Source of the DNA: an uncultured Acidimicrobiaceae bacterium
Lineage (GTDB): Bacteria; Actinomycetota; Acidimicrobiia; Spongiisociales; UBA5794
DNA: 64,000 bases
NCBI GenBank assembly: GCA_964505525.1
Contig: CAZDIQ010000001.1
Span: 5,544 to 69,543, forward strand
Reading direction: 5' to 3'
The notes under the pieces are model-generated. The model was not told the DNA's origin. It saw only the letters and a program-made list of their open reading frames with translations, and ran no database searches. A program made the position numbers and the translations under genes. Position 1 is the first letter of the stretch, and every line of letters starts with the position of its first letter. This document shows positions 16,341-48,720 of the stretch, piece by piece.

Positions 16341-16346
16341 GGGCAC

Positions 16347-16770: not shown

Positions 16771-16783
16771 GTGTTTGAGCCTC

Positions 16784-17839: not shown

Positions 17840-17853
17840 GGGTTGGGGTCCTT

Positions 17854-18657
17854 TCATTGCATGGATTGAGCTTCGGTGAGAAGCGGACCGTCGTAACCGA
17901 GTTCGGTCAACGTGTCCGACATTCTTCGAGTGAGATCGAGCAGCGCCGCAACGGATCGCTTCTGTCCGGTCATGGCTTTCGCCTTGTCGATCCACGGTTC
18001 AGGTTGCAACGCGAACCCGAACTGCATCTCGGCAGACTTGGCCTGTTCGGCGGCGATCTCGTCGACCAGTTTCCGGAAACGGACGGCCCCCATCCGAGGG
18101 TTCGCCAGCCACGCTTTCAAGCCGACCGACTGGTGGGCCGAGTCGAGTCGACGTAGCTCCAACGCTGCGGCAGGAGTGACCGCCTCAGCGTCGATCGCGG
18201 CTTGAACGTCGGAACCGAGTTCGAGCAGGTCGAGTCGCCACCGGACACGGAACTCGGCGACCCCCGCGATCGCAGCGATCTGTTCGACGGTCTGCCCGGC
18301 GTCGCGTCGTTTGCCGTAGGCGCGGGCTTCCTCCATGATCGACAAGTTCACGCGGCCGGTGTTCTCGGCGAGCATCAAATCGGCCTCGGCCTGTTCGTCG
18401 ACGTCGCGGATCGTCGCTTCGATCGTTACCCGGCCGAGCAGCTGATAGGCGCGCCAGCGGCGTTCCCCGGCGATCAGCCGGAAGCGGCCGTCGTCGAGTG
18501 GGCGCACCGCGATCGGTTCGGCGAGTCCGACCGCGGCGATCGACGCGGCCAACTGTTCGAGTTCGGCCAGGTCGAACACCTTCCGGTCGTTCGTGCCGGT
18601 GACGATCTGGTCGACCGGGATCGTGTCGACGTTCACTGGACGGTCACCATTCGGCAC
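17854..18657 (-). CDS. parB: ParB-like partition/nuclease-domain protein
   Basis: 'FRLIAGERRWRA' matches the ParB-N GERRxRA box, plus 'NLSIMEEARAY' in an HTH region. Confidence 0.6.
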   Translation of the reverse strand: MPNGDRPVNVDTIPVDQIVTGTNDRKVFDLAELEQLAASIAAVGLAEPIAVRPLDDGRFRLIAGERRWRAYQLLGRVTIEATIRDVDEQAEADLMLAENTGRVNLSIMEEARAYGKRRDAGQTVEQIAAIAGVAEFRVRWRLDLLELGSDVQAAIDAEAVTPAAALELRRLDSAHQSVGLKAWLANPRMGAVRFRKLVDEIAAEQAKSAEMQFGFALQPEPWIDKAKAMTGQKRSVAALLDLTRRMSDTLTELGYDGPLLTEAQSMQ

Positions 18658-19054
18658 CGTCGCGTTCGCCGAAGTGGTTGGGGCCGGAGCAGTTGATCGC
18701 CGACATGCCGTGCTCGCACTCCGCGAGTTCTTCGGCGGTGAGTGGGGGAGGTTCGTACCCTTCGGCGAGCAGGATGTCAGCGATCGCGTCGTACGCCGAC
18801 CACGGCGCGTACGGGAACACGGTCCGGTCGTCTACCGTGGTCCCGTCGGCCACAGCGACGATCAGGTACCGCTGCGGTGGACGCTGACCTGGTTCCTCCG
18901 GGAACCATGCGTCGTCGAAGTAGTCCTCGTCGTCGGCCGGGACGTACGGCTCGAACGCGACCGGCTTGATCGTGACCGGCACTCCGGCCGGGCTAACCCA
19001 CGTTTCGGTGGCAGGCATGCTCACCAGCCTTTCTGGTCGCACACGGCGACCCAC
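18644..19054 (-). CDS. hypothetical protein
   Basis: ORF, GTG or internal ATG start. Confidence 0.3.
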   Translation of the reverse strand: MGRRVRPERLVSMPATETWVSPAGVPVTIKPVAFEPYVPADDEDYFDDAWFPEEPGQRPPQRYLIVAVADGTTVDDRTVFPYAPWSAYDAIADILLAEGYEPPPLTAEELAECEHGMSAINCSGPNHFGERDGAEW

Positions 19055-19332
19055 TTGTCGATGGTCACACGGGCCAGGTTCTCGGCGTCGAGGCCGTACC
19101 CGCCGTGACCGGCCTCGGCGAGAACGGACGTCTTCGCACCGCGGGTCTTGCTGATGCGGACGGCGTACTCGTCCGACGGGAGGAGTTCGACGAACAGGTG
19201 GGCTGTCGCGTGGGCGAAGCCCATCTTGAAGCGGACGGTGTTGGCGTCGACAATCGTCGCCTCACGCAGTCCGAGTTCCATGAACGTCCGGATGCCCAGC
19301 TGGGCTTGAAGTTGGGCGTAGTCGATGCTCAT
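19021..19332 (-). CDS. hypothetical protein
   Basis: ORF in operon. Confidence 0.35.
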   Translation of the reverse strand: MSIDYAQLQAQLGIRTFMELGLREATIVDANTVRFKMGFAHATAHLFVELLPSDEYAVRISKTRGAKTSVLAEAGHGGYGLDAENLARVTIDKWVAVCDQKGW

Positions 19333-19673
19333 GCTGCGGCCCGCAGCTTCTTCGTGAGGGCGGCCTTCTGACCGGGGGTCAGTCCTTCGTACAGGTTGCT
19401 GACGTCCTCCTGGACGGCGACGAGACGCAGATTGACACCGACGGTGATCCGGTCGTCGTTCCGGAACGAGCGGGTCTTCTCGCGGCCGGGCTGCCCGCCG
19501 AACACGGTGAGTTCGGTGCCGCCGTGACGGGCGTACCGGAACTTGAATGGGAACTGTTCGCCGTCGACGTTGATCAACGCTCCGAGGGTCATCAGGTCAC
19601 CGGTCGTGGTGCTGGCGGTGGCCTCGTGGCCGAGGTTGACCTTCCCCATCTTGCGACTGGTTATTGCGGTCAT
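19329..19673 (-). CDS. hypothetical protein ending in 'LTPGQKAALTKKLRAAA'
   Basis: First gene after conserved leader copy B (SD GAAGGAG 7 nt from ATG); C-terminal shared motif. Confidence 0.5.
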   Translation of the reverse strand: MTAITSRKMGKVNLGHEATASTTTGDLMTLGALINVDGEQFPFKFRYARHGGTELTVFGGQPGREKTRSFRNDDRITVGVNLRLVAVQEDVSNLYEGLTPGQKAALTKKLRAAA

Positions 19674-19679
19674 CTGCAC

Positions 19680-19740
19680 TCCTTCTCTCTCGATCCGACA
19701 AGTTCAGTGTAGCAGGTCATGCTACGTAACGCAAATCGTG
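19680..19740 (-). promoter_or_regulatory. conserved promoter/leader module copy B
   Basis: Contains perfect GTAGCA-ggtca-TGCTAC (19709..19725) and SD GAAGGAG. Confidence 0.55.
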
Positions 19741-19822
19741 ATGCGAGAGAGCCCGCCCGGCCTGCCGGGTACAAACCGGCAACCGGACGGGCTCGACTCC
19801 CAGCGGACTGGGAGGAAGTTGC

Positions 19823-19858
19823 CTCCGGGGCGGTAGCGGGCGGACGCCACCCCGGAGG
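19823..19858 (-). terminator. GC-rich stem-loop (9-bp stem CCTCCGGGG/CCCCGGAGG), likely terminator of gene 19866..20135
   Basis: Perfect 9-bp inverted repeat 8 nt downstream (minus sense) of the stop codon; no U-tract, as is common in actinobacteria. Confidence 0.45.
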
Positions 19859-19865
19859 CGATCTG

Positions 19866-20135
19866 TCAGACGGACTTCCGTCGACGTGCAGCCACCGTAG
19901 CCGCGGCCCCGACACCGAGCACCAACGCCCCGGCCAGAGAGACGATCCGGGTCGCGTCAGAACCCGACGTCGCCAACTCGGCGGGAACGGTCGTCGGGGG
20001 AACAGTCGTGGTCGACACGGACGTCGCCGGGCATTCCGGGGACGGAACGTACGACTCGCAGTCGGCAGCAGAAACCGTCGGGGCCGCGACGAACGTGGCC
20101 ACCGCGGTGAGCAGGATCAGGATGCGGTCCATCAC
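19866..20135 (-). CDS. small secreted protein with sortase-type (LAxTG-like) C-terminal sorting signal
   Basis: N-terminal signal peptide 'ILILLTAVATFVAAPTVSA'; Thr/Pro-rich middle; C-terminal 'LATSG' + hydrophobic stretch + 'RRRKSV'. Confidence 0.45.
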   Translation of the reverse strand: MMDRILILLTAVATFVAAPTVSAADCESYVPSPECPATSVSTTTVPPTTVPAELATSGSDATRIVSLAGALVLGVGAAATVAARRRKSV

Positions 20136-20968
20136 AGCAATGTTGCCTGACCCACCGACACGGCCGTCCCGGCGATCGAATGACGGCCAGTCCAGCGGCC
20201 GACGACATCTTCTGTCCGGTCATCCGGATGCACCAACGGGTACTCCTCGATCAGCTGACCGTCCAACGTCATGCCCATCTCGGTGCGTGGGGCGGCGGAC
20301 TGTTTGAAGTAGAACGCGATCTCGGCAGCCGCGCATCGGTCGCGGACGTCGCGTGCCCAGTCATGATCCATCGGCCGGTAGCCGGGGCCGGACTCGCCGC
20401 CGACGATCACCCACTGGATGTTCGTCAGGTCAAGCGACGGGACCGGGCCGAGCATCGGCTCCACACTGAGGAAGTGAACGACCGCGGGGATCGACGTCAG
20501 GCTCTTGGTCCGGAACGTGTACCGGTCGTTCTCGATCGACGTCCCAACCCAGATGTTCGCCGGGACTTGTTTGAGGCCGTTGCGTGCCAGCCAGCCTTCC
20601 GAGTCTTCGGTGCCGTTGAAGTACGCGGCCATCAGCTGCGGCCGTTTCGTCAACACAAGATAGTCATGCTGGACGCGGAGCATCTGAGCGAAGATCGTGT
20701 CGCGCTGCTCGTCGTTGAAGTCGACGTGGAACAGATCCGACATCGAGTTGACGAACACACGAGACGGGCCAGACTTGCGAAGGAACTTCGACGGCTCACC
20801 GATCTTGTTCTCTTTGTAGGTCGGCGTGAACCCGTTGGGGAACGACCCCTTCCCGAACTTCGTGGTGATCGTCTCGGCGTAACAGTTGTCGCAGCCAGGC
20901 GAGATCTTGTCACATCCCGTCGTCGGATTCCAGGTGTGCTCCGCCCAGCGGATGCGAGTGTCTTTCAT
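20132..20968 (-). CDS. phage Gp37/Gp68 family three-Cys-motif protein (DUF5131)
   Basis: 'TWNPTTGCDKISPGCDNCYAE' and 'VFVNSMSDLFH' are the family signatures. Confidence 0.7.
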   Translation of the reverse strand: MKDTRIRWAEHTWNPTTGCDKISPGCDNCYAETITTKFGKGSFPNGFTPTYKENKIGEPSKFLRKSGPSRVFVNSMSDLFHVDFNDEQRDTIFAQMLRVQHDYLVLTKRPQLMAAYFNGTEDSEGWLARNGLKQVPANIWVGTSIENDRYTFRTKSLTSIPAVVHFLSVEPMLGPVPSLDLTNIQWVIVGGESGPGYRPMDHDWARDVRDRCAAAEIAFYFKQSAAPRTEMGMTLDGQLIEEYPLVHPDDRTEDVVGRWTGRHSIAGTAVSVGQATLL

Positions 20969-20998
20969 GGACCAAGTGTAGCACCACGGGCGACAGCA

Positions 20999-21583
20999 TC
21001 ACGACGGAGTGAATCCTTCGGGAATGAGAAGCTCGTACCGTTTGACCATGCCACCGTGAGAGAAGAACAGCAGCCGCGACTTCCGGTAGCCAAGCTTGTA
21101 CAGCCACGCCTCCCACAACTCGTCGGCGATTGTCGTGATCAACGTGACCGGTGCACCCTTCGGCAACGTGATGCCCAAGTCTTTCAAGATGATGTGCGGG
21201 ACAGGTCCGAGCGCACGAGCGATCCGTGTTGTCAACACCGGGGTCGTCGGAGCCTTCGCTGCGACGGTATTCAACTGGGTCGTCGGCCAGCCGTAAGCGT
21301 CCAAGTCGATCAGGTCGAACTTCGACAAGTCGAGCGCAACAAGCAGGCGAGCGTTGTCGACCTTCAACGTCCCGGCCCCACGTTCCTTGTGATCCGACCG
21401 ATACAGCTTCACGTCCCAACCGTCCGGCAGCACCGCCCTCGTCATGTCCCACAGACGGCCGTGGCCGTGGAACGCGTCCAACACCCGGATCGGCCGCGGA
21501 GTTCCGAGCAGTTCGACCGCCTCAACTCGGAGCGCGACCTTCGACGCGATGTGATCGTTGTCGGTCAGAGTCTGTTCGGTCAT
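20999..21583 (-). CDS. three-Cys-motif partner protein (TcmP-like, methyltransferase fold)
   Basis: Immediately upstream of and co-oriented with Gp37/Gp68. 'VLDAFHGHG' (SAM motif I-like) and 'LIDLDAYGWP' (motif IV-like). Confidence 0.5.
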   Translation of the reverse strand: MTEQTLTDNDHIASKVALRVEAVELLGTPRPIRVLDAFHGHGRLWDMTRAVLPDGWDVKLYRSDHKERGAGTLKVDNARLLVALDLSKFDLIDLDAYGWPTTQLNTVAAKAPTTPVLTTRIARALGPVPHIILKDLGITLPKGAPVTLITTIADELWEAWLYKLGYRKSRLLFFSHGGMVKRYELLIPEGFTPS

Positions 21584-22161
21584 CAGTTCACCGTCGAGCG
21601 GACCGTCACGCCGTCGATGCCGTCCAACTGGTCGAGGATCTCCGACACCCGATCCCACTCGTCGAGGTCGACCGACACGAGCACATGGGCACGCTTCAAC
21701 GGTTTCAAGTCGACCGACTTCGGCTTCTCGGCTGGCTCGTCGTCGGCTTCGGGCAGCAGGTCAGCGATCACCGCCGACAACGAGTCCGACAAGGTGCCCT
21801 GATCGACAAGTTCGTTCAACAGGTCCGAGTTGATCTCGGCCATGCTTCCGATCGGGTCCATCAACGCCAGCATCTCATTCTCCTCAGCCTCCGACAGTTC
21901 CACCCAAGCAACCGGGATCGGACCGTCCTGTGCGAGCCCGACACGCATGTGGCCGTCCACGACCAAGCCTGTCGTCCGGTTCACGATGACCGGCGCGACC
22001 CAGCCGACATCATCCAGCACCGACGTCATCGCAGCCTTCTGCTGATCGCCGTGCACCCGCGGGTTCCGCGGGTTGGCTTCCAACTCCGACGCGGTGATCT
22101 CGCCGTACTCGACGATCCGATTCCGCCACTTGGCGTCAACCTTCGGTTTGCGTACTGCCAT
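21583..22161 (-). CDS. ParB/Srx-like nuclease-domain protein
   Basis: 'VVDGHMRVGLA' resembles the ParB-N DGHHR core; acidic C-terminus. Confidence 0.45.
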   Translation of the reverse strand: MAVRKPKVDAKWRNRIVEYGEITASELEANPRNPRVHGDQQKAAMTSVLDDVGWVAPVIVNRTTGLVVDGHMRVGLAQDGPIPVAWVELSEAEENEMLALMDPIGSMAEINSDLLNELVDQGTLSDSLSAVIADLLPEADDEPAEKPKSVDLKPLKRAHVLVSVDLDEWDRVSEILDQLDGIDGVTVRSTVN

Positions 22162-22945
22162 CGCCCCATCTCACTTCTCTCATGGCGGCCTCATCACCGG
22201 CCGCCGCCTTGTATCGCTCCGCCAACTCGTACTGCTCCTGATGCCGGTCATGCCCGTACGTCTGCGTCAACGGCTGAGGATGCCACAGATGCCAGCAGGC
22301 GCCTTCAAGCCGGGTGTGCGGCCCCCACAGGGTGTCGACGGACAGACCGAACGACGTGTCGTCAGAACCCCACTTCGCGAACCGTTCGTCGTAGCCGGTC
22401 ACCGTCGCGAACGCGCCGCGCGGTACGACGACCATCCCGGACCAGGCGACGTTCTCGCCCACCCATTCGCAGTCCTCATCCGGCCACCGGATCGGCCTCG
22501 ACGGATGATCGCGCAGGACCCGTTCCGAAGCTCGACGGTTCAGCTTGACGTAGAAGCGGGGCATCACCCACGACGCCGCCCCGGACAGGACGAGGTCGGC
22601 GGCATGAACAATCCAATCCGGGTCGAACACGGTGTCCGCGTCGGCGATGACGAACACGTCACGCGCCGCCCTCGACGCCGCAAGGTTGATCGCCTTCGGA
22701 TGATTGAAGTCACCAGGATCTTGCCGACGCCCACCGCCGTCATCGGCGACGATCACTTCGACCGACGGCAACAGCGCCGCCCATCGCCGCGCCAGCCAAC
22801 GCCACGACGTAGTGCGATGCCCGCGATCCGGACGGTACGGGACCAGCACCGAGACATGAGGCTGGCTCACGCTACGCCCTTCGCCTGATTCCACCATTCC
22901 GGATGAGGACGGTCCGGGGAGTTCCGCCAGAACGTCGCCGCGCAC
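22136..22945 (-). CDS. family-2 glycosyltransferase
   Basis: 'VIVADDGGG', 'IADADTV', 'GYDERFAKWGSDDTSF' are GT-A signatures. Confidence 0.6.
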   Translation of the reverse strand: MRGDVLAELPGPSSSGMVESGEGRSVSQPHVSVLVPYRPDRGHRTTSWRWLARRWAALLPSVEVIVADDGGGRRQDPGDFNHPKAINLAASRAARDVFVIADADTVFDPDWIVHAADLVLSGAASWVMPRFYVKLNRRASERVLRDHPSRPIRWPDEDCEWVGENVAWSGMVVVPRGAFATVTGYDERFAKWGSDDTSFGLSVDTLWGPHTRLEGACWHLWHPQPLTQTYGHDRHQEQYELAERYKAAAGDEAAMREVRWGDGSTQTEG

Positions 22946-23457
22946 GACGGACAGAGCGGTCCGTGCCAGCCGCGGGCGTTCGTCTCATTCCCACAGTCCG
23001 GGGTCATGCACACCGTCGCCCACGGATCGAAACCCGCAGGCAGCACGATGTGAGCGTTCCGTTCGACGATCCACTGACACATGCCGACCAACTGTGCATG
23101 GATCAACGTCGACGACGGTGCATGCTTCCACGCCTTGAACAGAGCCTTCGTGTGCTTCCGGCACAGGCCGATCGTCTCGGCCCCGTTCTCGCAGTCCGAC
23201 ACGAGACACAACACCACAGGCGGCTCGCCGGAGAGAGCCCGGTCGACGACCTGCTCAATCGAGGACTCATCGACGAACAGGCCCGAAACGAGTTCGTGCA
23301 TGTTCCAGGTATGCCGGTTCGAGATCTTGCCGAGATAGCCCTTGCCGATGACCGGATCACCCCGCTTCAACCGGCGACGGGTCGTCGCTTCGGTCAAGCC
23401 AAGGAGATGGGCGACGGTGTCAATCCCAACGATGCGAGGCGGTGAGACAATCGGCAT
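22867..23457 (-). CDS. putative DNA-binding protein (N-terminal HTH, C-terminal Cys-rich)
   Basis: 'VAHLLGLTEATTRRRLKRG' HTH-like; 8 Cys in C-terminal half. Confidence 0.4.
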   Translation of the reverse strand: MPIVSPPRIVGIDTVAHLLGLTEATTRRRLKRGDPVIGKGYLGKISNRHTWNMHELVSGLFVDESSIEQVVDRALSGEPPVVLCLVSDCENGAETIGLCRKHTKALFKAWKHAPSSTLIHAQLVGMCQWIVERNAHIVLPAGFDPWATVCMTPDCGNETNARGWHGPLCPSCAATFWRNSPDRPHPEWWNQAKGVA

Positions 23458-23460
23458 AGC

Positions 23461-24516
23461 TCACAGAGGTTCTTCGCCGTTGTCGTCTTCGAGGTCGTCG
23501 AGGTCGTCGAACAACGGGCCGTCCAAGATGCAGACGTACTTGTCGTCTTCGAGAGCGATGGCGTTCAACTCAACCAGTTGATCGAGCAGCTGCTGGGCAC
23601 GTTCCGCCGACAAGTCCAAGTCGTCGGTGATGACCTGGACGGTCAAATGTCCGACCGTCGCGCCGTGGGCGTACACCTTCGCCAACTGGGCCTTCTCGGC
23701 TTCGGCCAGCATCCCATCATCGGATGCGTCCTCCGCGCCGAGGACCGAAGCAAGGAAGTCGTCGATCACGTCGCCGTAGTCCGATTCGATTATCAGGTCG
23801 ATGCCTTCCATCGACGGCATCGCGTTCACCGTCTCCTCCGACAGCTTCACCGGCATCACCAGGCCCGAGACGTTCACGTCGCCGGTCGCGTTGATCGAGA
23901 TCTTCGCGACGCCGTTCTGGCCGCCCAACGCGAACTCGATCGAAGCCTTGTCCCACAGGGCCGACAGCTTCCCGAGACGGAGGATGCCGTCCGCTCCGAA
24001 CCCGATCAGGCCGGTCGGCTTCCAGTCATGCCCGAACCACAACGCCCGCCACTCTGGGAACGCCCCCTCGAAGCGGGGAGTTTCGATCCGTTCGTCATAG
24101 GCGTTGTTCATCTGGAACCACACCGACGCCTGCGTCATCCCTTCGAACGAGCCCTGCGTCGACGCGTCGGACATCTCGCCGAAGCCGAGCGTGATCGACA
24201 CCGGAGTGTCCTCGCCGTCCTGTTTCGTCATCTGCTGCGCGTACTTCATCAGCCCCAGGACCCGTTGATCCGGGTCCGAGCAGATGGCAACCTCGTCGGG
24301 CAGGACGTCCGCTCCGGGCTCGGGGTCGTCGTAGCCGAGGACCGGAACCCACGCCTTCAACAGCAGATAGCCGTCCGTCGCGACCAGCCGGATGCCTTCG
24401 CCGTACATCTCGATCAGCGTCGACCGGTACAACGCCGGACGCTTCTCCTCGTTGCCGCAAGCGAGAGCTACCGAGTGCCAGGAACGGCCAAGCACCCAAG
24501 CGTTGAACTGCATCAT
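23461..24516 (-). CDS. second beta-clamp (DnaN)-like protein
   Basis: 'GIRLVATDGYLLLKAWV' matches the DnaN 'ATDGHRL' block. Start at tandem ATG with GAAGGAGA SD; first gene leftward from divergent promoter region. Confidence 0.45.
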   Translation of the reverse strand: MMQFNAWVLGRSWHSVALACGNEEKRPALYRSTLIEMYGEGIRLVATDGYLLLKAWVPVLGYDDPEPGADVLPDEVAICSDPDQRVLGLMKYAQQMTKQDGEDTPVSITLGFGEMSDASTQGSFEGMTQASVWFQMNNAYDERIETPRFEGAFPEWRALWFGHDWKPTGLIGFGADGILRLGKLSALWDKASIEFALGGQNGVAKISINATGDVNVSGLVMPVKLSEETVNAMPSMEGIDLIIESDYGDVIDDFLASVLGAEDASDDGMLAEAEKAQLAKVYAHGATVGHLTVQVITDDLDLSAERAQQLLDQLVELNAIALEDDKYVCILDGPLFDDLDDLEDDNGEEPL

Positions 24517-24604
24517 GTCTCCTTCGTCGGATTCCGGTCGGACGACAGGACCGTAGCACGAGTTGCGACATGTAGCATCCGGTGCTGCTACCGTCGCGTC
24601 GGTC
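24517..24604. promoter_or_regulatory. divergent promoter region between clamp-like operon and terS/terL with two GTAGCA palindromic sites
   Basis: GTAGCA-cgagt-TGCGAC (24553..24569) and GTAGCA-N8-TGCTAC (24572..24591). Confidence 0.5.
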
Positions 24605-25216
24605 ATGGCGAACAGGAAACGGAAGACGAAGGCGGAGCTTCAAGCCGAGGCCAAAGCCGCCGAGCAGGAACGGGTCGTGGTCTGGGCCGAACAGTTCGGG
24701 GCACCGATCGCGATTCTGCAAGGCTGGAACATCGACGACGGGACATGGCATCCTCAGTCACCGGTCGGGCTCATGTTGCAGGCCATCGCCTCACGAGGGG
24801 CGCATATCACGACCGCCGCACAACTCGGAGGGCTGCGGAACATCATGCAGCTGATCGCCCGTGGTCACGAGTACATGGTCGACGCCGCCGAAGACCGGGC
24901 CTACATCCCGATCGACGTGCGTGTGTTCGTCGACCTGGTCGTTCAGATTGAGCAGGCCGAAGCGTTGATCGAAGTCGAACTCGTGAAGACGGTCCGGGAC
25001 GGGGCGAAGACCGACCCGAAGATCGCGTTGGCGATGCTGTCGCGACGGTTCGGTCAACGCTGGCGTGAACAGCAGGCCATCTTCACCGCCGACGAACACG
25101 ACGAACGTGACGCCGCCGTGTCGAAGGTGCTCGCGAACCCGGACGCGGCGTTGGCGCTCGCCGAGATCGCCCACGAAGTCGAAGACACGGTGCAGGAGCA
25201 CGAACGCGGTAGCTGA
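24605..25216 (+). CDS. terS: terminase small subunit (putative)
   Basis: Basic N-terminus 'MANRKRKTKAEL', about 200 aa, stop overlaps terL start (TGATG). Confidence 0.5.
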   Translation: MANRKRKTKAELQAEAKAAEQERVVVWAEQFGAPIAILQGWNIDDGTWHPQSPVGLMLQAIASRGAHITTAAQLGGLRNIMQLIARGHEYMVDAAEDRAYIPIDVRVFVDLVVQIEQAEALIEVELVKTVRDGAKTDPKIALAMLSRRFGQRWREQQAIFTADEHDERDAAVSKVLANPDAALALAEIAHEVEDTVQEHERGS

Positions 25217-26742
25217 TGCGTACCCACGACCTGGCCTCACGGGCGTGGAAGGCAATGCCCGACACGATGGGCCGCCGACTGTCCGACGGCACCTACACGG
25301 CACCGGAGCACGTCAAGCTCATCTCATGGCTGCTGACGTTGAACGCGAACCGGTACGTCCCGCGGCTCGGGATCTCGATGCCTCCGGGTTCAGGGAAGTC
25401 GGAGGTCATCGACTACTACGACTCGATCCACCTGTTGGAACACGACCCGCGACGAAGGATCATTCTCGCCTCCTACTCCGGTGAACTGGCCGAGGAACAA
25501 GGCAAACGGGTCCGCAACACGATCGAGTCGAACTATGACCTGCTCAACCTCCGGCTCATGCAAGACAGCCGGGCCGCTGACCGGTGGCGTACCACGATGG
25601 GCGGCGGGATGTGGACCGTCGGCATCGGCGGTTCGATCACCGGTCGCCGCGCGTCGAACTTGAAGATCGACGACCCGCACAAGAACTTCGCCGAAGCCAT
25701 GTCGATCAAGAACCAGGTCGACACCTGGAACTGGTACGGGTCCGTGGCCCGCACCCGCATGCTGCCCCGCTCGTCGCTGGCAGTCGTCCAAACCCGGTGG
25801 GCTGAGGGTGACCTGATCGGCCGGTTGAAGTCGAACGACGAAGGCAAAGACGACTGGCTGTTCGTGTCGCTCCCGGCGATCGCCGAGAAAGACGAGACGA
25901 TCGTCACCGTCCTCGGCGACTGGTATTACAAGCTCACCGCGATGGGCGTCACCCGGTTCCCGGTATGGGAACGGGAGAAAGGTCAAGCCCTGTGGCCCGA
26001 GTTGGAACCGGGGGTGCCGTGGTTCGACGAAACGGAGTACGCCGAGATCCGCGCCGACGTCGGCGAAGTCGTCTGGGCTGGGCTGTACCAGCAACGCCCG
26101 TCGCCCGCCGAGGGCAACCTGTTCAAACGATACGACTGGCGGCGTCTCGACGGGCCGATGCCAGCAGGCACCTACACGTACGTTCGGCGTTGGGACTTGG
26201 CGTCAGTCGAAGGGGGCGGTGACTGGACGGCCGGGATGCTCATGGCGATCAATCACGAGACACGGCACATCTACATCATCGACGCCCGCCGTGCCCGGCT
26301 CGGCCCGACCGAAGTCGAAGCGTTCGTGCACATGACCGCTGTGGAGGACCGCGACAACTACGGCACCGTTCTCACCCGCGTTGAACGCGAACCGGGATCG
26401 TCCGGCAAGAACGTCGAGACGAACTACATGGCGAACGTCCTCGCCGGGTTCCCCGCCAAGTTCCTGCCGTCAACCGGAGCGAAGGAGGTTCGAGCCCTGC
26501 CGTTGTCCGGTCAGGTAGGTGCCCGCAACGTGTACCTGTGCCGACGGGTCCGAGCGAACGGGGAGACGACGATCCCGGACTGGTGGGAGTGGCTGATCGA
26601 GGAAGCGGCCGTGTTCCCGAACGGCACACACGACGACCTCATCGACGTCGCCTCACTCGCCTACGTCGATCTGATCGAGGAACAACCGCGCCGGTCACGG
26701 ACGAAGGTCGGGTCGTCGGCCCGCAAGCAACTCGGGTTCTGA
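25216..26742 (+). CDS. terL: terminase large subunit
   Basis: Walker A 'GISMPPGSGKS', Walker B 'LKIDDPH', 'LYQQRP', C-terminal nuclease 'THDDLIDVASLA'. Confidence 0.9.
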   Translation: MRTHDLASRAWKAMPDTMGRRLSDGTYTAPEHVKLISWLLTLNANRYVPRLGISMPPGSGKSEVIDYYDSIHLLEHDPRRRIILASYSGELAEEQGKRVRNTIESNYDLLNLRLMQDSRAADRWRTTMGGGMWTVGIGGSITGRRASNLKIDDPHKNFAEAMSIKNQVDTWNWYGSVARTRMLPRSSLAVVQTRWAEGDLIGRLKSNDEGKDDWLFVSLPAIAEKDETIVTVLGDWYYKLTAMGVTRFPVWEREKGQALWPELEPGVPWFDETEYAEIRADVGEVVWAGLYQQRPSPAEGNLFKRYDWRRLDGPMPAGTYTYVRRWDLASVEGGGDWTAGMLMAINHETRHIYIIDARRARLGPTEVEAFVHMTAVEDRDNYGTVLTRVEREPGSSGKNVETNYMANVLAGFPAKFLPSTGAKEVRALPLSGQVGARNVYLCRRVRANGETTIPDWWEWLIEEAAVFPNGTHDDLIDVASLAYVDLIEEQPRRSRTKVGSSARKQLGF

Positions 26743-26844
26743 CGCGGCAGAGCCCCCGCACACCTACGGGGACTCTGGTGCCGTGATGGGGAGGAGTCGA
26801 ACCTCAACGGCTGGAGCCGTCTACGACGCATCTACGTCGCGGCA

Positions 26845-26876
26845 GGCACACCGTCAGCCTGCTGCCGCATCCGGCG
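26845..26876. terminator. imperfect GC hairpin in convergent region between terL and 26878..27096
   Basis: GGCAGGC...GCCTGCtGCC inverted repeat directly after minus-strand stop. Confidence 0.3.
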
Positions 26877-26877
26877 A

Positions 26878-27096
26878 TCAGTGATCGGAACCGACCGCTA
26901 CCCGCGACCGCAACGTCGCGACGTACTTCCCGTCGATCCGGTCCGGGTAGACGTGGAACGTGCAACCCGGCCACGCGTCGACGACACGCGTGCAGGCGTC
27001 GACCAGGGCGTCCCGGTCAGAGTTCGCTACGTCGACGGTCTGCGACGTGGCGAGTTCCGCGCACAGCCGTGCGACCTGTTCGTGAGTCATCGTCAT
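26878..27096 (-). CDS. hypothetical protein (72 aa)
   Basis: ORF 'MTMTHEQVARLCAEL...'. Confidence 0.4.
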   Translation of the reverse strand: MTMTHEQVARLCAELATSQTVDVANSDRDALVDACTRVVDAWPGCTFHVYPDRIDGKYVATLRSRVAVGSDH

Positions 27097-27167
27097 TGTG
27101 CACCCCCTCAGAATCCATGTCGTTCACCATGCTACATGCGGTAGCGGTTCATGGCAATGGGGATTCG

Positions 27168-27485
27168 TCAGTACGACCAGCCGGGCTTGTCGACCACGTC
27201 CGCCCACGCCCGCGCGCCGTGGCGTTGACCGGCGCCGAGGCCGAGGATGCGGGAACAGTCCACGCAGCGCCGGTCGATCGGTGGAGGCCACGTCGCGGTG
27301 ATCGACATGTCCGGCTGCCCGGCGATGTCCCACAGCAACGGGAACGCGTCGGAGCCGCACACGGTGCGCTGCTCGCGGCGCGACCTGTCCCAGTCGATCG
27401 GTGGCCGCAGCGACGCGTGGATCGTCGTATGGGACGTCAACGCCAGACACACATGGTCGTCGAGGATCGGAAACAACAGGCCCAT
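27168..27485 (-). CDS. hypothetical protein (105 aa)
   Basis: Low-Arg ORF coupled 3 nt after upstream gene. Confidence 0.3.
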   Translation of the reverse strand: MGLLFPILDDHVCLALTSHTTIHASLRPPIDWDRSRREQRTVCGSDAFPLLWDIAGQPDMSITATWPPPIDRRCVDCSRILGLGAGQRHGARAWADVVDKPGWSY

Positions 27486-27500
27486 GTTTCACGTGGCACA
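27485..27500. promoter_or_regulatory. parS-like site TGTTTCACGTGGCACA (14/16 to TGTTTCACGTGAAACA)
   Basis: Direct comparison to the canonical chromosomal parS. Confidence 0.4.
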
Positions 27501-27944
27501 TGAAGGGGCAGGGGGTGCCGACGGTGGGCTGGACGGTGGCGGCCAGTTCGACGGGCGACGCGGGGACCGCGGGTCGATCGCCCAACCCAACCATCCGGAC
27601 GTGACCCCCAACTCGTCTGGAGGGTCAAGGTTACGCAACGTCGGTTCGGCCAGGCCGTTGCCGTCATCGTCGATCTGCTGCACTTGGATCGTCACGGACC
27701 CGGACGCCCGCCACTCGTTGCGTTGCGTTGTGAACGGGACGCCGTGCTCGTCCTCGTTCAACGTGCCGATCGTGACGAGCGTCTCCTCCAACCCGAAGTC
27801 GAGCACCTTGTACCGGGACAAGCCGTAGACGAGATGATCTTCGCGCCACAGGTTCTCGAAGGTGACCTTGCCGTCGACGGACCGGAGCGGGATGTCGATG
27901 TGTGGCAGGTTCAATCGCTGTACACGGCGGGTCGGTTTAGCCAT
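27489..27944 (-). CDS. hypothetical protein (151 aa)
   Basis: ORF. Confidence 0.4.
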   Translation of the reverse strand: MAKPTRRVQRLNLPHIDIPLRSVDGKVTFENLWREDHLVYGLSRYKVLDFGLEETLVTIGTLNEDEHGVPFTTQRNEWRASGSVTIQVQQIDDDGNGLAEPTLRNLDPPDELGVTSGWLGWAIDPRSPRRPSNWPPPSSPPSAPPAPSCAT

Positions 27945-27971
27945 GATCGAAGCGTACGACCCGGCCCGACA

Positions 27972-28655
27972 TCACCGAGCGGTGCCCCATGCCGGGACGG
28001 CAGCATCGCAGCGTAGAGCGGCGATGCAATGCTCGGTGCGGTCGGCGCGGATGACCCACACGGTCCAGCCGACCGGTTCGCCGTCGCGGCTGTGGCAGCG
28101 CATCTCCATCGTCCACGACCCGGCGCGCCACAAACGGCCGATGACATCAATCCAGGACTGCCATTCGTCGTCTGATTCCCACGGGACGGTCCGGCCTAAT
28201 GCTGCGACCTCGCCGCTCGTCATGGACCGGAAGCGGCGATAGTCGACGCCTTCGAGAGACGCCGCGATGGCGGCGATCTCGGCCAGCTGATGGTCGTCGG
28301 ACAGGACCGCGATCTTGTGGATGCCGGTCAACGGGCGGGGGACGTCGCGTTGGCGGCGGGCGACCGTCAGGAACAGGGCAGTCGGATCGCCGACCGGTGT
28401 GCCCGACAGGACGGTCGGGGCGGTACGTGGCGTGTTGAACCAGCGGGTGTCCACCCGGATGACAGGGCAGCCGATCAGGGTGTCACCGGACCAGATTCGG
28501 GCGTAGCCGGAGACGATGAGCGCACGAGCGGTCCGTCGGATGCGGGCTGTTGACTGTTCAGTCCAGGCCGGTTCGTGGTAGACGGAGCCGGACAGGTTCG
28601 ACAACGACAGCCACTCCCACATGGATTGCACGAGGCGGAAGTCGTCTACCGGCAT
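27972..28655 (-). CDS. hypothetical protein (227 aa)
   Basis: ORF. Confidence 0.4.
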   Translation of the reverse strand: MPVDDFRLVQSMWEWLSLSNLSGSVYHEPAWTEQSTARIRRTARALIVSGYARIWSGDTLIGCPVIRVDTRWFNTPRTAPTVLSGTPVGDPTALFLTVARRQRDVPRPLTGIHKIAVLSDDHQLAEIAAIAASLEGVDYRRFRSMTSGEVAALGRTVPWESDDEWQSWIDVIGRLWRAGSWTMEMRCHSRDGEPVGWTVWVIRADRTEHCIAALRCDAAVPAWGTAR

Positions 28656-28833
28656 CGCACCAGGACGCTACTTGACGTCGGAAGTGGAGTGTGGCCCGGC
28701 GCAACCCTGCGGTCACGCCGAGCCTCACTCGGCACTGGGTTCCGGCTCTGAAACTGAGCTTGTCGGATCAGAAGTCAGGAGCCGTAGGCCCAGTGACAAC
28801 AGTGTAGGCGTGGGGGCGACAGTGTCGTCAACG

Positions 28834-30183
28834 TCAGAACACTTCGTCCTGATTGTGCGGCCGGTAGTCGCTCGCCGGGACGCCGCCGTATCGGGCACCG
28901 AACAGCGTCGAGCCGTAACGGAGCGGGTCGTTGCGGTCCTCGACCGACCAAGGCAGCCGTTTGTCGGCACCGCGGATCACAGTCGACGGCAGCCAGATGT
29001 CCGAGTCGCGGGGGACACGGAACTGTTTGACGGTCATCTCGACCCCGGTGCCGCCAGGGACGATCCTGGTCGACGTGTCGTCGTCGGGCGGATGAATCGA
29101 GAAACCGACGTCAGGCCAGTCAACCCATCGTTCGGAGCCTCCCGGCGCGCCGTGGTCACCGCGGGAGAAGTGGGCTTCCAACGCGATCGCGAAGCCGTAC
29201 CGGGCCGACAAGGTATTCAGCGTGGCATGCAACGCGAGGGCGGCTGTCTCATAGTTCTCGCCGGGTTTCATCATCGACATGTACTTGATCGGCCCCATGA
29301 CAAGCACCTGCGGCTGGGACCGTTGGATCGCGGCTTCGAGCGCGGCGAGTCCTTCCGGGGATCGGATGTCGATCCCGCCAGGCCGGTGCAGCAACGCGGG
29401 CCGTCGAAGGTCGAACACGGAGTGCGAGTCGACTGAGCGTTGCAGCCCGAACAGGATGGTCCGAGTCGACGACGTGATATCCCAAGCCCCCGCTTCTAGC
29501 TCGACGATCAAGGCGCGGCGTTCCTGTTCGGTTCGTTGCCCCGTCCACGGGTGCACGCCATTCTCGGCGCAGTACCCGATCTGGCGGAGCAGCGTCGACT
29601 TGCCGATCCCTGCCTTCGCGACGACGAGCAGGCGTTGCCCGCGGCGCAGGAGGCCACGCGCGATCCACGGTTGGACTTCGTCTCGGTCTTCGCCGGAGTC
29701 CAAGGTCGCCATGTCGTCGTAGTAGCCGTGGATGATCGAGTCGGCGTGACGGCGTAACAGTTCTGACTCGGCCAACTGATCCGACACGGTGCGGGCCACG
29801 TCGACGGCTTGTTCTTGTGCGTATCCGGCGTCGGTGAGACGTGCCCCGATGACGATGAGCGCCCGCGACTTCGAATGGTCGAGCACGACCTGCGCGTATC
29901 GGCCGACGTTCGACACCGCTGGCGTTTCGTTCATCAGTTCCGTCAGCCAAACGATCGCGTCGTGCTGGTCCGGGATGCCAGCCGCGACGACAACCTGGTC
30001 CACTCGTTCGCCTGCGGCGGTGAGCGTGGCGATCGCATGGAACGCTGCCTGGTGTTGCGGGGCGTAGAAGTCGGCTGACGTCAACGCTGCTGTCGCTGTC
30101 TCGCAGGCTTCTCGTGCTATCAGGCACGACCCGATGACGGCACGTTCGGCGTTGAGGTCGTGCGGTGGGATGCGGTCAGCCAT
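28834..30183 (-). CDS. dnaB: DnaB-like replicative helicase
   Basis: N-terminal 'IPPHDLNAERAVIGSCLI' (DnaB N domain), Walker A 'VVAKAGIGKST', RecA-fold C-terminal. Confidence 0.65.
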   Translation of the reverse strand: MADRIPPHDLNAERAVIGSCLIAREACETATAALTSADFYAPQHQAAFHAIATLTAAGERVDQVVVAAGIPDQHDAIVWLTELMNETPAVSNVGRYAQVVLDHSKSRALIVIGARLTDAGYAQEQAVDVARTVSDQLAESELLRRHADSIIHGYYDDMATLDSGEDRDEVQPWIARGLLRRGQRLLVVAKAGIGKSTLLRQIGYCAENGVHPWTGQRTEQERRALIVELEAGAWDITSSTRTILFGLQRSVDSHSVFDLRRPALLHRPGGIDIRSPEGLAALEAAIQRSQPQVLVMGPIKYMSMMKPGENYETAALALHATLNTLSARYGFAIALEAHFSRGDHGAPGGSERWVDWPDVGFSIHPPDDDTSTRIVPGGTGVEMTVKQFRVPRDSDIWLPSTVIRGADKRLPWSVEDRNDPLRYGSTLFGARYGGVPASDYRPHNQDEVF

Positions 30184-30709
30184 CCGCGGGAACGAGTTCG
30201 ATCGTCAGCGGGCCGTGCACGATCCGATGCTCGATGCCGACCATCACCGAGATGAACTTCGCGAGGTCGATCGCTTCGAGCCGTCCGTCGAGTTCCAGGT
30301 CGTTCCTGATCCCTGCGATGTCGTCGGCCAGCTGGGAGGCAGCGAGCGCCGGGTCGGACTGGACGATGCGCTTGTATCGCTCCTCCTGCTCGATCAGCAG
30401 GTTGTCCCGGTGGTCGGATTCCATCACCCGGATCAGCAGATCGACTCGCCTCGCTCGGCGTGCCCCCATGTCGGCGGCATGCTCGATGATCGCTGACGGC
30501 AAGATGTCCTGCGGGGACGTGGTCAGCATCATCGCCTTGATCGCGGTCATCACGTCATCGACGATGATCCGGCCGTGCTTCGTCCCGGCGATCAGATGCT
30601 GCCACACCTTGCGTTGCAAGTCCTTGCGGGCCGGGTCCAACCAGCTGGGCCGGTTGAGCATCACAGCGTACGCCTGGACGGACTGGTCGATCACGAGTGT
30701 GTCATTCAT
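30176..30709 (-). CDS. hypothetical protein (177 aa)
   Basis: ORF between initiator and helicase; could be a helicase loader. Confidence 0.35.
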   Translation of the reverse strand: MNDTLVIDQSVQAYAVMLNRPSWLDPARKDLQRKVWQHLIAGTKHGRIIVDDVMTAIKAMMLTTSPQDILPSAIIEHAADMGARRARRVDLLIRVMESDHRDNLLIEQEERYKRIVQSDPALAASQLADDIAGIRNDLELDGRLEAIDLAKFISVMVGIEHRIVHGPLTIELVPADG

Positions 30710-31906: not shown

Positions 31907-32004
31907 TCGTTCTCACGAGCTTCCGAGCATCGCGCGAGCCACGACGGGATGCAAGAACAACACACCTGTAGTTCACATGTCGCCATGACAGATACGGTTC
32001 CGAC

Positions 32005-48710: not shown

Positions 48711-48720
48711 CGTGCACACG

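Follow-up and report, generated by a model that had tools for sequence, protein, structure and literature searches.

A promoter-proximal dyad motif at operon starts in an uncultivated actinobacterial phage lineage

The palindrome GTAGCA-N5-TGCTAC, which an earlier note on this DNA described as operator-like, is a real, non-random and promoter-proximal signal at operon starts of the 64-kb stretch of phage DNA analyzed here (hereafter, the window). One arm of the motif coincides with a predicted -10 element and the other arm mirrors it, and a plausible reading, though one that falls short of probable, is that these sites are host σA-type promoters that overlap a dyad operator, to which a dimeric regulator specific to the phage, most likely a repressor, would bind.

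Results

Occurrence of the motif

When the window was searched for GTAGCA-N5-TGCTAC (GTAGCANNNNNTGCTAC, allowing up to 2 mismatches), it was found that the palindrome occurs 7 times versus 0.51 expected, a count reached by 0 of 100 shuffled sequences, and that all 7 matches lie in intergenic DNA, which makes up 3.7% of the window under our own gene model. The recurrence at operon starts that the earlier note had proposed is therefore borne out. A perfect copy of this palindrome exists at a single place in the window (19706..19734), while the heptamer TGTAGCA is found 7 times versus 1.13 expected. An oriented form of the pattern, GT[AC]GC[AC]-N8-TAnnnT, has 8 matches versus 0.48 expected; 7 of these are intergenic (binomial p = 7e-10, a value that, like the other p-value given below, overstates independence because sites within and between genomes are linked by descent or duplication), and all face the downstream gene. 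The equal density in coding DNA that the earlier note had named as the argument against its proposal was not found, since the palindromes are exclusively intergenic and, for the hexamer TGT[CA]GC, the intergenic density in the window and six relatives is 4.2 times the coding density. The same motif was also recovered by an unbiased Gibbs sampler from 29 upstream regions of the window, which contains at least 14 promoter/dyad sites.

Architecture of the consensus

Read along the strand that is transcribed, which is mostly the minus strand, the sites share the consensus c-TGT(C/A)GCA-N5-TGC-TACAnT. Its right arm has the form of an extended -10 element (TGnTAnnnT), with the hexamer TACAnT at -12..-7. 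In an alignment of 47 sites, the conserved A of the hexamer is present in 95%, its first T in 68% and its last T in 78%; this last T has no mirror partner. The motif is oriented, with a left arm that is mostly TGTCGCA and a right arm, TGCTACA, that is followed by the unpartnered T. The TG that precedes the hexamer is present in about half of the class II sites and in 4 of 7 class I sites (classes defined below). The pattern TG-n-TA-nnn-T occurs 11 times in the window, and the 7 intergenic copies are all aimed at a downstream gene. At about 14 sites across seven genomes (the window and its relatives), an ATG or GTG start codon lies 6-7 nt past the hexamer, a spacing that implies leaderless mRNAs.

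The left arm occupies positions -27..-21, with an invariable 8 bp between it and the -10 hexamer; measured from box to -10, all 26 of the intergenic cases in register have a distance of 15, and none has 14 or 16. Six of the seven mirror positions in TGT(C/A)GCA-N5-TGC(T/G)ACA are complementary in the consensus, giving a 19-bp dyad that in its standard register spans -27..-9. Information content is distributed symmetrically, and the left-arm TGT (positions 2-4, 1.4-1.9 bits) is equal to the mirrored ACA (positions 18-20). Among the relatives aligned, the N5 between the arms varies freely and conservation is position-specific; the left arm is conserved like the -10 itself in the metagenomic relatives and in a Desertimonas flava prophage. 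TAC is found in 13 of 14 promoters that have a left box and in 2 of 16 leaderless promoters that lack it, but the TAG stop codons with which upstream genes end confound this comparison. The flanking positions 1 and 21 do not significantly extend the dyad (13 of 34 pairs complementary versus ~10 expected). By visual reading of the alignment, the inner TG of the right arm varies with no compensating change in the left arm, an observation that runs against an operator.

Two classes of sites

The C/A variant in the left arm divides the sites into two classes: TGTAGC sites (class I; GTA in 31% of all sites) and TGTCGC sites (class II, by definition those with GTC, 63%). All 7 class I sites have a TTGnnn -35 box at exactly 17 bp, whereas 23 of 24 class II sites have no -35 box (TTG at 16-18 bp), an association with a Fisher p of 3e-6 that is weaker than this value suggests if the class I sites represent, as they may, just 2-3 independent evolutionary origins. 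A pure repressor leaves this partition (7/7 versus 1/24) unexplained, and an activator box fits it better. About half of the class II sites lack both the -35 box and the extended -10 TG (alignment tally). For a gene of ~475 aa, the orthologous promoter is class I in the window and in relatives L006 and L008 and class II in L004 and L009, so the -35 box and the C/A base have switched together.

The classes also differ in symmetry, as 5.7 of 7 mirror positions are matched in class I and 4.5 of 7 in class II; the poor palindromes of class II are another observation that counts against an operator. Folding shows a similar difference, with a mean MFE of -6.4 kcal/mol versus -1.8 for shuffles in class I, and of -3.35 versus -2.39 in class II.

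Sites in the window

The sites that the earlier note placed at 24553..24569 (GTAGCACGAGTTGCGAC), 24572..24591 (GTAGCATCCGGTGCTGCTAC) and 11847..11863 (GTAGCACATCATGTCAC) are where it put them. Its remaining coordinates are correct as well: TGTAGC occupies 20977..20982, with the ATG at 20968 lying 8 nt away, and on the minus strand TGTAGCA occupies 27130..27136. The supposed half-site at 20977 is in fact part of a full site (20975..20996), and the sites that begin at 3263, 13947, 27951, 28801, 31978 (plus strand), 34633, 46101 and 53694 had been overlooked.

The first of the two adjacent sites is a class II promoter/dyad on the minus strand, ATGTCGCA-ACTCG-TGC-TACGGT (24550..24571; PWM score 21.4 bits, 0 mismatches), which is predicted to drive the clamp-like operon (23461..24516 and the genes downstream); at its ortholog in relative L001, an ATG follows 7 nt past the -10. 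The second, on the plus strand at 24571..24594, is an imperfect dyad, TGTAGCA-TCCGG-TGCTGCT, that runs into an extended -10 (TGCTACCGT, 24586..24594) and ends 10 nt before the terS ATG at 24605. Its register is atypical, with a box-to-(-10) distance of 18 and not 15, and L001 does not preserve the dyad part. On the minus strand, 23 nt upstream of gene 11380..11820, the site at 11844..11865 has TGCTACATT as its extended -10, and its left arm, GTGACAT, is degenerate. Among the orthologous promoters, those of L004, L008, L150 and L151 keep TGCTACAGT and none has the left box.

Both class I promoters of the window are on the minus strand. The one at 16371..16399 (25.3 bits) consists of a -35 TTGCGT (16394..16399), a 17-bp spacer with CTGTAGCA-GATCG-TGG and a -10 TACACT, and is followed by a conserved leader (TTGTCGGATCGAGAGAG, 16350..16366) and gene 14922..16340. 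The other, at 19706..19734, has the same -35 (19729..19734), spacer length and -10, with ACGTAGCA-TGACC-TGC in the spacer and a copy of the same leader at 19685..19701, so that the two are near-identical duplicates, leader included. The first gene of this second operon, which includes ParB-like and beta-clamp genes, probably starts at the ATG at 19673.

Several further class II promoters are on the minus strand. The full site at 20975..20996, CTGTCGCC-CGTGG-TGC-TACACT (24.6 bits), has the ATG of a DUF5131 gene (20132..20968) 6 nt past its -10, which implies a leaderless mRNA. The site at 44956..44977, CTGTCGCA-GCCGA-TGC-TACGAT (19.5 bits), has the ATG of 44386..44949 at the same distance; a 1387-aa gene downstream is a putative tape-measure gene, judged by its size and position. 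At 13947..13968, CTGTCGCA-CGATG-ACC-TACGCT (18.4 bits, 0 mismatches) overlaps the 3' end of 13955..14698, and the in-frame ATG at 13935, 11 nt past the -10, is likely where the SNF2 helicase gene really starts. The class II promoter CTGTCGCC-CCCAC-GCC-TACACT (28801..28822, 0 mismatches) lies in the gap that follows the DnaB gene and adjoins a second TGT-N13-ACA dyad (28823..28841). Class II-like promoters were found at 3263..3284 (GTGTCGGT-CGTTC-TCG-TACACT, 15.4 bits), inside the end of ORF 3253..3990 and 6 nt upstream of the GTG start of 3014..3256, and at 53694..53715 (CTGTCGGT-CGACA-TGC-CACACT, 16.8 bits), 6 nt upstream of the GTG start of a glycosyltransferase gene (53004..53687).

Weaker class II-like sites on the minus strand include TGTCGGG-N8-TACGCT (27951..27971, 2 mismatches), in the 57-nt gap upstream of 27489..27914; TGTCGCC-N8-CATGAT (34633..34653), 6 nt upstream of the ATG of a Mu-Gam-like gene (33934..34626); and CGTCGCG-N8-TAAGGT (46101..46121), which directly follows a hairpin with an 11-bp stem (46121..46151) and lies 6 nt upstream of the GTG of 45606..46094. 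On the plus strand, the class II promoter TGTCGCC-ATGAC-AGA-TACGGT (31978..31998) has a right arm that is not palindromic and an ATG 6 nt downstream (32005); its L001 ortholog (upstream of 9774) is TGTCGGC-N8-TACCGT, again with an ATG 6 nt later.

A further minus-strand dyad in a different register, TGTAGCA-TGGTG-AACGACA (27118..27136), lies within the site at 27116..27157 upstream of 26878..27096. Here it is the left arm that supplies the -10, TAGCAT (27129..27134), of a predicted TTGCCA-17-TAGCAT promoter for 26878..27096, and the dyad spans about -14..+5. This promoter (27157..27129) was the sole σ70-type match when 11000..30900 was scanned, and its TAGCAT is conserved at L001 5221. A plus-strand gene downstream of this site was considered and rejected as non-coding (coding score -18.7).

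Relatives and probable host

Syntenic relatives whose terL identity ranges from 88% to 49%, the D. flava prophage among them, also carry the motif. A megablast search of INPHARED returned just one 90-bp match and no near-identical phage, a tblastn search with terL found at most 34% identity to any cultured phage, and a terL scan of IMG/VR gave no match. The exact pattern TGTCGCA-N5-TGCTACAnT had 89 single matches in IMG/VR, which is about chance level, mostly in low-GC contigs, and so not informative for this lineage; the motif sites had no match in Rfam. A terL-profile scan of a genome collection identified one close genome, that of D. flava, and the host of this phage lineage is probably a member of the Acidimicrobiia.

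Candidate regulators

The best candidate regulator is a 146-aa protein specific to this phage group (11380..11820, minus strand), whose model (pLDDT 80) contains a MerR/excisionase-type winged helix but no MerR coiled-coil dimerization helix. Sequence comparison gave a weak match to phrog_597 ('DNA binding protein'), and the best hits of a fold search were MerR-family DNA-binding domains, RdfS, BldC and RacA. Each of these hits was weak (E-values of 0.2-1), and the MerR-like label is therefore a statement about predicted fold class and not about homology. Its own promoter alone appears to lack the left arm, and the left box is absent from this promoter and those of its homologs in 5 of 5 phages.

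A second candidate, of 196 aa (22867..23457, minus strand), is conserved inside the clamp-like operon, has homologs in L001, L004, L006 and L008, and is predicted to combine an N-terminal winged helix (pLDDT 80-91) with a Cys/His-rich C-terminal half; the remainder of the protein is poorly modelled. The third is a ParB-like protein (17854..18636, minus strand) within the class I operon, with ParB_N and HTH_ParB domains, a GERRWRA box and a homolog in the D. flava prophage locus (L010). Pfam scans, which covered about 69 of the 74 proteins of the window, detected neither an integrase nor a CI-like repressor, and their matches likewise included no WYL, MotA/AsiA-like or sigma protein, no RNA polymerase domain and no ParA gene.

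Discussion

A proposed promoter with a built-in operator

We propose that the motif is the standard promoter cassette of an uncultivated phage lineage, with promoter and operator in one. Host RNA polymerase would start transcription 6-7 nt downstream of TACAnT, often at the first base (A or G) of the start codon, which would make the mRNA leaderless, and the left arm, by mirroring the right, would create a 19-bp dyad to which a dimeric helix-turn-helix regulator specific to this phage group could bind. With the -10 itself serving as one of the half-sites, such a protein, once bound, should keep sigma region 2 away and silence the promoter, and it would thereby act as a genome-wide repressor, in lysogeny or as a temporal shut-off. 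Class I sites are near-perfect palindromes with a TTGnnn -35 at 17 bp, and class II sites have no -35 box.

The dyad character of the motif, with its six complementary mirror positions and symmetric information profile, would fit a dimeric regulator and is in keeping with that part of the earlier note which suggested a regulator binding site; what has to be added is that the (extended) -10 hexamer of the promoter, TGC-TACAnT, forms one of the arms, that the motif is oriented, and that there are two classes of it. Two half-sites with dyad symmetry lie about one helical turn apart and overlap the -10, as in an operator, and the dyad at 27118..27136, where the other arm gives the -10, suggests operator-like use in a second register. 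We know of no RNA polymerase or σA contact that reads bases -27..-21. Because TGCTACAnT is conserved in promoters that have no left arm, part of the apparent symmetry may simply be the extended -10 preferred by the host polymerase.

Alternative explanations

The main alternative, possible if rather unlikely, is that these are bipartite activator-dependent promoters, in which the heptamer TGTCGCA stands in for the missing -35 box as a '-26-type' element at -27..-21, and a phage or host factor bound there bridges to sigma region 4 so that RNA polymerase containing SigA can use class II, while class I would represent factor-independent early promoters in an early to middle/late cascade like that of T4 or PafBC. 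The link between the C/A variant and the -35 box, the joint switch of both at the promoter of the ~475-aa gene, the strict register of the box with the -10, and the many class II sites that lack both a -35 box and the extended -10 TG speak for this model, and the box holds a GTC triplet no more than 1 bp from the -26 element of PafBC promoters, tGTCgg(N10)tAnnnT, which are also -35-less (PMC8635444). Class I operons also encode DNA-binding candidates such as the ParB-like protein. However, the spacing is N9 and not the N10 of PafBC (26 cases at 15, none at 16), the proteins scanned in the window include no WYL, MotA/AsiA-like or sigma protein, the possibly few origins of class I weaken the covariation, and the model leaves unexplained the mirror symmetry with the -10 arm, the different register of the dyad at 27118..27136, and the conservation of TGTAGC across distant phages in the spacer of class I promoters that need no activator.

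A related conjecture, which we consider unlikely, is that class II reflects phage sigma adaptation or appropriation, in that a factor (the small MerR-like winged-helix protein, or host PafBC in a 1-bp-shorter register) would read TGTCGCA in place of the -35, and the same factor or a partner would shut class I early promoters through the TGTAGCA dyad, making a two-class temporal switch of one 22-bp cassette.

It is improbable that the motif is a promoter consensus and nothing else, that is, a 21-22 bp cassette which spread by duplication and recombination and is kept, with no dedicated regulator, since the host holoenzyme (with CarD/RbpA) uses it well, the palindrome being a by-product. The conservation of TGCTACAnT even where the left arm is missing, and the duplication of the class I promoter together with its leader, are in keeping with such a history, and many actinobacterial promoters work with a -10 box alone (PMC8635444); but the left-arm TGT matches the -10 A in conservation among phages whose terL identity is just 49%, and the free N5 makes this conservation position-specific rather than simple identity by descent.

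We regard as very improbable a parS-like loading site at which the ParB-type CTPase encoded at 17854..18636 would act in partition, condensation or KorB-like silencing, with only incidental promoter overlap. The protein has ParB_N and HTH_ParB domains and GERRWRA box, is encoded in a class I operon and has a D. flava prophage homolog, and the outer TGT...ACA resembles chromosomal parS; yet the half-sites of the parS consensus, TGTTNCAC-GTGNAACA, are contiguous and form a 16-bp palindrome, whereas the heptamers found here are split by a free N5. The TAnnnT register, the orientation to genes and the 6-7 nt to the start codon are properties of promoters, and the Pfam results for the window contain no ParA gene.

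A hairpin that acts in read-through transcripts or in supercoiled DNA, whether to terminate or attenuate transcription, as a site of RNase processing or as an N4-type hairpin promoter, is exceedingly improbable: class I sites do fold and the sites lie between co-oriented genes, but class II, the majority, has a fixed C·T mismatch in mid-stem and folds no better than shuffles, the arms show no compensatory changes in the alignment, no T-run follows, a terminator scan left the sites out, and neither an Rfam match nor an RNA polymerase domain in the Pfam matches was found. An intrinsic terminator or structured RNA was rejected on the class II folding energies, the terminator scan and the Rfam search. 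Promoters of the σ54 type (TGGCAC-N5-TTGC, with an invariant GG at -24 and GC at -12) were rejected as well, since the upstream box has GT and not GG and TAnnnT is present, and σ54 is not known from Actinobacteria; ECF and phage-RNA polymerase promoters were rejected because a TAnnnT hexamer is present and the scans found no RNA polymerase or sigma domain.

Implications

The motif allows promoters and operons to be mapped directly in a lineage of uncultivated ~100-kb phages that has no cultured relative, and predicts widespread leaderless transcription in these phages. If the proposed promoter with a built-in operator is correct, it offers a testable case of actinobacterial phages wiring genome-wide control into the -10 region; if the site is a repressor operator only, it is a routine yet useful annotation feature. 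The coupled switch of the -35 box and the base at -24 is in addition a clean natural experiment on -35-less initiation in Actinobacteria, a mechanism that is currently known in detail for PafBC only.

Comparison with known systems

The nearest parallels are operators that, in temperate phages, overlap the core promoter, together with the repressor sites that actinobacteriophages carry in many copies. The repressors of Cluster A (L5) phages bind many sites across the genome, the asymmetric 13-bp stoperators, which are mostly inside transcription units and not in promoters (PMC6550527). The motif described here is likewise a short, repeated phage site that is tied to the direction of transcription and has one presumed genome-wide regulator; it differs from stoperators in being a dyad, in being nearly always promoter-linked, and in having a half-site that is the -10 hexamer in fixed register. 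In phage phiC31, conserved inverted repeats reportedly serve as multi-copy repressor sites.

The Cluster O mycobacteriophages carry >30 copies of a 17-bp dyad, TGTTCGG-N3-CCGAACA (PMC4351075). Shared features are a 7-bp inverted repeat of the form TGT...ACA, present in many copies and mostly at gene starts or near them, as well as a beta clamp, a ParB-like protein, glycosyltransferases and divergent leaderless promoters. The sequence is different, however, and the spacer is N5 here and N3 in Cluster O, whose copies are invariant, have not been reported at the -10 and have no meaningful orientation. The phages themselves are unrelated in sequence, as terL identity to any cultured phage is at most 34%.

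PafBC-dependent promoters combine a SigA -10 (TAnnnT) with an element at about -26 in which GTC is strictly conserved, and have no -35 consensus (tGTCgg(N10)tAnnnT; PMC8635444). Class II promoters similarly pair a -10 box with an upstream GTC element and lack a -35 (23/24), in what is presumed to be the same host phylum, but their spacing is 1 bp shorter (TGTCGC-N9-TA versus tGTCgg-N10-tA), with 0 of 26 at the PafBC distance. The bases after GTCG also differ (CA versus g), a third of the sites have GTA, the motif is a dyad, and the window scan revealed no WYL protein.

Sigma appropriation by MotA/AsiA is another case in which a phage box replaces the -35 (PMC8635444). The present motif matches T4 middle promoters in this replacement, if it occurs here, and in existing side by side with presumed early promoters whose -35 is normal. 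T4 middle promoters have a MotA box at -30 and a σ70 -10 box, so the sequence and position of the box differ, no MotA/AsiA homologs were detected, and the analogy is one of architecture alone.

Operators of the MerR family, finally, are dyads in a -35/-10 spacer of 19-20 bp. The class I dyad also sits between the -35 and the -10, and the best candidate regulator has a predicted MerR-type winged helix; the differences are a class I spacer of an optimal 17 bp, a dyad that is centered at about -18 and covers -10 bases, and a candidate without the coiled-coil dimerization helix. Viewed alongside these systems, the motif looks like a familiar kind of phage control signal in an uncultivated actinobacterial phage lineage.

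A probable promoter motif in the intergenic DNA

The coordinates given in the earlier note for the palindrome GTAGCA-N5-TGCTAC were all correct on checking, and its suspicion of a non-random signal was borne out: with up to 2 mismatches allowed, 7 copies occur in the window against 0.51 expected, none of 100 shuffles reaches 7, and all 7 lie between genes. The heptamer TGTAGCA is present 7 times against 1.13 expected. A codon-bias gene model, several of whose start codons are provisional, places 74 genes in the window (64% GC) and leaves only 3.7% of it intergenic. The plus strand carries only terS/terL (24605..26742) and three small genes (32005..32778), so the sites need to be read in reverse complement, where they align as c-TGT(C/A)GCA-N5-TGC-TACAnT.

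Read in this way, the motif appears to be first of all the promoter itself, since its right arm is TG-n-TAnnnT, an extended -10 element, while the left arm, TGT(C/A)GCA at -27..-21, probably docks a regulator. The last T of the hexamer, present in 78% of sites, lacks a mirror partner, so the site is oriented and not a plain palindrome. The oriented form, GT[AC]GC[AC]-N8-TAnnnT, occurs 8 times against 0.48 expected; 7 of the 8 fall within the intergenic 3.7% (binomial p = 7e-10) and all point to the downstream gene. The earlier guess of a regulatory, promoter-proximal element was right. The window has 11 TGnTAnnnT sequences; the 7 that are intergenic are all aimed at the next gene. The same motif was recovered blind by a Gibbs sampler from 29 upstream regions, at 8.7 bits versus at most 8.2 for shuffled sets, a margin that is modest because the sampler makes every region contribute a site.

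At 14 sites in the window and six relatives, ATG or GTG lies 6-7 nt past the hexamer (in the window at 20968 (DUF5131), 44949, 32005 on the plus strand, 3256 and 53687). This is where a sigma-A polymerase would initiate, so the position of these codons indicates that the mRNAs should be leaderless, as mRNAs of Actinobacteria commonly are. For the SNF2 helicase the probable start is ATG 13935, 11 nt past the -10 of site 13947.

Conservation and two classes of site

Syntenic loci were fetched around terL and around homologs of the gene at 11380..11820, with terL identities of 88% (L001), 68% (L004), 66% (L006/L007), 61% (L008), 52% (L009) and 49% (L010/L100, a Desertimonas flava prophage), plus the further loci L150 and L151. 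All of them contain the motif, again ahead of genes and with unchanged orientation. Across 47 aligned oriented sites, the left-arm TGT carries 1.4-1.9 bits, as many as its mirror image ACA within the -10, the N5 varies freely, and the bases ahead of the left arm show no general conservation. In 26 intergenic cases TAnnnT begins exactly 15 positions after the first base of the box; distances of 14 and 16 do not occur. We know of no sigma-A holoenzyme contact that reads bases -27..-21, so their conservation calls for another protein.

Among 33 oriented sites with a canonical TA...T hexamer, TTGnnn stands exactly 17 bp upstream of the -10 in 7/7 TGTAGC sites (class I) versus 1/24 TGTCGC sites (class II), a contrast whose significance (Fisher p = 3e-6) overstates the evidence, because descent and duplication link the sites to one another and class I may have only 2-3 independent origins. 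Class I sites are good palindromes (5.7/7 mirror positions matched) and class II sites poorer ones (4.5/7, with a fixed C/T mismatch). The orthologous promoter of a ~475-aa gene (14922..16340, phrog_2319) belongs to class I in the window, L006 and L008 and to class II in L004 and L009, so the one base at -24 changed together with the -35 box.

The two class I sites of the window (16371..16399 and 19706..19734), which the earlier note had called leader copies, are followed on the minus strand by a conserved leader, ACTT..TTGTCGGATCGAGAGAG, and a Shine-Dalgarno sequence (16350..16366 and 19685..19701). The leader follows the ~475-aa gene promoter in the window and four relatives (among them L004 ~6430..6450, L006 ~2590..2612 and L009 ~10950..10970), the copy at 19685 being the second in the window. 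It begins 5 nt past the -10, has no Rfam match, and contains TGTCGGA, which shares 6/7 bases with the left-arm box 26 bp upstream. Downstream of the 19706 promoter, the gene caller starts the first gene at 19649, but ATG 19673 is the more probable start; an 88-aa ORF (19866..20132) with a signal-peptide-like N-terminus precedes a 216-bp gap.

Two observations concern sites elsewhere. Four IMG/VR contigs from unrelated-looking viruses (L031, L035, L092, L097; GC 0.51-0.60) each contain a closely similar motif twice (ATGTAACAGGTTATGCTACACT and ATGTCGCAATTAATGCTACATT are examples), so the cassette, or a convergent counterpart, may be present in another phage group. In L150, a 121-kb relative, back-to-back promoters in a divergent region (3218..3263) form a long palindrome, ACCGTAGCAC-N19-GTGCTACGGT, in which the extended -10s mirror each other and both lack a left box; this double promoter may hint at the origin of the short dyad.

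The phage and candidate regulators

Pfam and PHROGs matches identify the window as phage DNA: terminase, SNF2 helicase, DnaB, replication initiator, beta clamp, ParB-like protein, Mu-Gam, DUF5131, a glycosyltransferase block and large proteins with toxin-type domains. A scan of ~69 window proteins revealed no sigma factor, RNA polymerase, WYL protein or integrase. Metagenomic relatives are many (terL identity 88% down to 45%), and no cultured relative of the phage was found (terL identity at most 34%). The sole close relative in a named genome is a prophage of the isolate D. flava SYSU D60003, class Acidimicrobiia (NZ_QKYK01000003.1, 142597..164087), so the host is probably an actinobacterium of that class; the locus sits midway in a 385-kb contig, so the lineage includes an integrated prophage.

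Two clamp-like genes have the same length (351 aa): 16784..17839 weakly matches all three DNA_pol3_beta domains, and 23461..24516, conserved beside terS in relatives, has only a faint PHROGs processivity-factor match. The toxin-type domains lie in a single minus-strand block (43..3000, 3253..3990, 3990..8216) of proteins with a Zeta toxin (985 aa), a PemK/MazF-like domain (245 aa) and ADP-ribosyltransferase plus HNH (1408 aa), which may be ejected or virion-associated effectors. At 47794..53687, at least five family-2 glycosyltransferases and a methyltransferase resemble the sugar-modification block beside terL in the D. flava prophage (L010 1232..9300) and recall glycosyltransferase genes of Cluster O mycobacteriophages. 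Between 46178..46897 and 45606..46094, an 11-bp GC-rich stem (46121..46151, minus strand; GTGCCCCCGGC-N9-GCCGGGGGCAC) has the look of a terminator behind a highly expressed structural gene but lacks a T-run; a weak class II-like promoter lies directly 3' of it.

Three phage proteins are candidate regulators, and a host protein may instead fill this role. The product of 11380..11820 (146 aa, lineage-specific, 28 homologs) is modeled (pLDDT 80) as a beta-helix-helix-beta-beta-helix winged helix whose best structural matches, all weak, are MerR-family DNA-binding domains, the excisionase RdfS, BldC and RacA. Its promoter keeps a perfect TGCTACA(G/T)T and lacks the left box in 5/5 phages, as would be expected of a regulator expressed outside its own regulon. 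The N-terminus of the 22867..23457 product carries a similar winged helix; the protein also has a Cys/His-rich domain and is kept within the clamp-like operon in four relatives. The ParB-like protein (17854..18636), encoded in a class I operon, combines ParB_N and HTH_ParB domains with an intact CTP-binding box (LIAGERRWRAY); no ParA was detected in the window, and a homolog (44% identity) is present in the D. flava prophage.

Repressor, activator or bare promoter

Our tentative preference, somewhat short of probable, is that the motif is an operator for a dimeric repressor overlapping the promoter. Because the -10 itself serves as one of the two half-sites, a dimer bound there would keep sigma region 2 out. 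The consensus forms a dyad of 19 bp whose information profile is symmetric, and TAC, whose C mirrors the G of TGT, is found in 13/14 promoters with the box versus 2/16 box-less candidates, a control confounded by upstream TAG stop codons. A copy of this dyad at 27118..27136 stands in a different register, about -14..+5, at the sole sigma-70-type match of a tool scan of 11000..30900 (TTGCCA-17-TAGCAT, 27157..27129); the -10 TAGCAT is its other arm and is conserved in L001, and the opposite strand is non-coding. The integrated prophage shows that the lineage has temperate members, which also favors a repressor. Of the four sites in that prophage, three belong to class I and show a perfect, extended dyad, CTGTAG-N10-CTACAG.

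An activator box at the left arm is unlikely, yet it would fit the covariation of the -35 box with the C/A base, and the architecture is reminiscent of T4 middle promoters. The likeness to PafBC promoters is striking: these read tGTCgg(N10)tAnnnT, with a '-26 element' at -23..-28 and no -35 box, and the PafBC heterodimer inserts between DNA and sigma region 4 (PMC8635444). However, the phage spacing is N9, with 0 cases at N10, the bases after GTCG differ, one third of phage sites have GTA, and PafBC are WYL proteins, of which none was detected among the window proteins scanned. An activator also leaves unexplained the mirror symmetry, the TGTAGC conserved in class I spacers and the shifted-register site.

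A promoter cassette without any regulator is quite improbable, given position-specific conservation at -27..-25 beside a free N5. The small remainder is shared by ParB/parS sites, since parS palindromes are contiguous whereas the phage dyad is split, and by a hairpin or terminator, given that folding is no better in class II sites than in shuffles (-3.35 vs -2.39 kcal/mol), that a terminator scan does not pick the motif sites and that there is no Rfam match. A sigma-54 promoter is ruled out by the box GT in place of the invariant GG, by the TAnnnT hexamer and by the phylum, Actinobacteria, from which sigma-54 is, to our knowledge, absent.

Comparison with known systems

For the repressor that we prefer, two parallels were counted: many-site repressors are a known actinobacteriophage theme, and Cluster O phages also have multi-copy dyads, of unknown function. 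The feature worth experiment is the linked trade of a -35 box for one base at -24. The motif appears to be a phage-specific promoter/operator cassette, and such cassettes are already known in kind.
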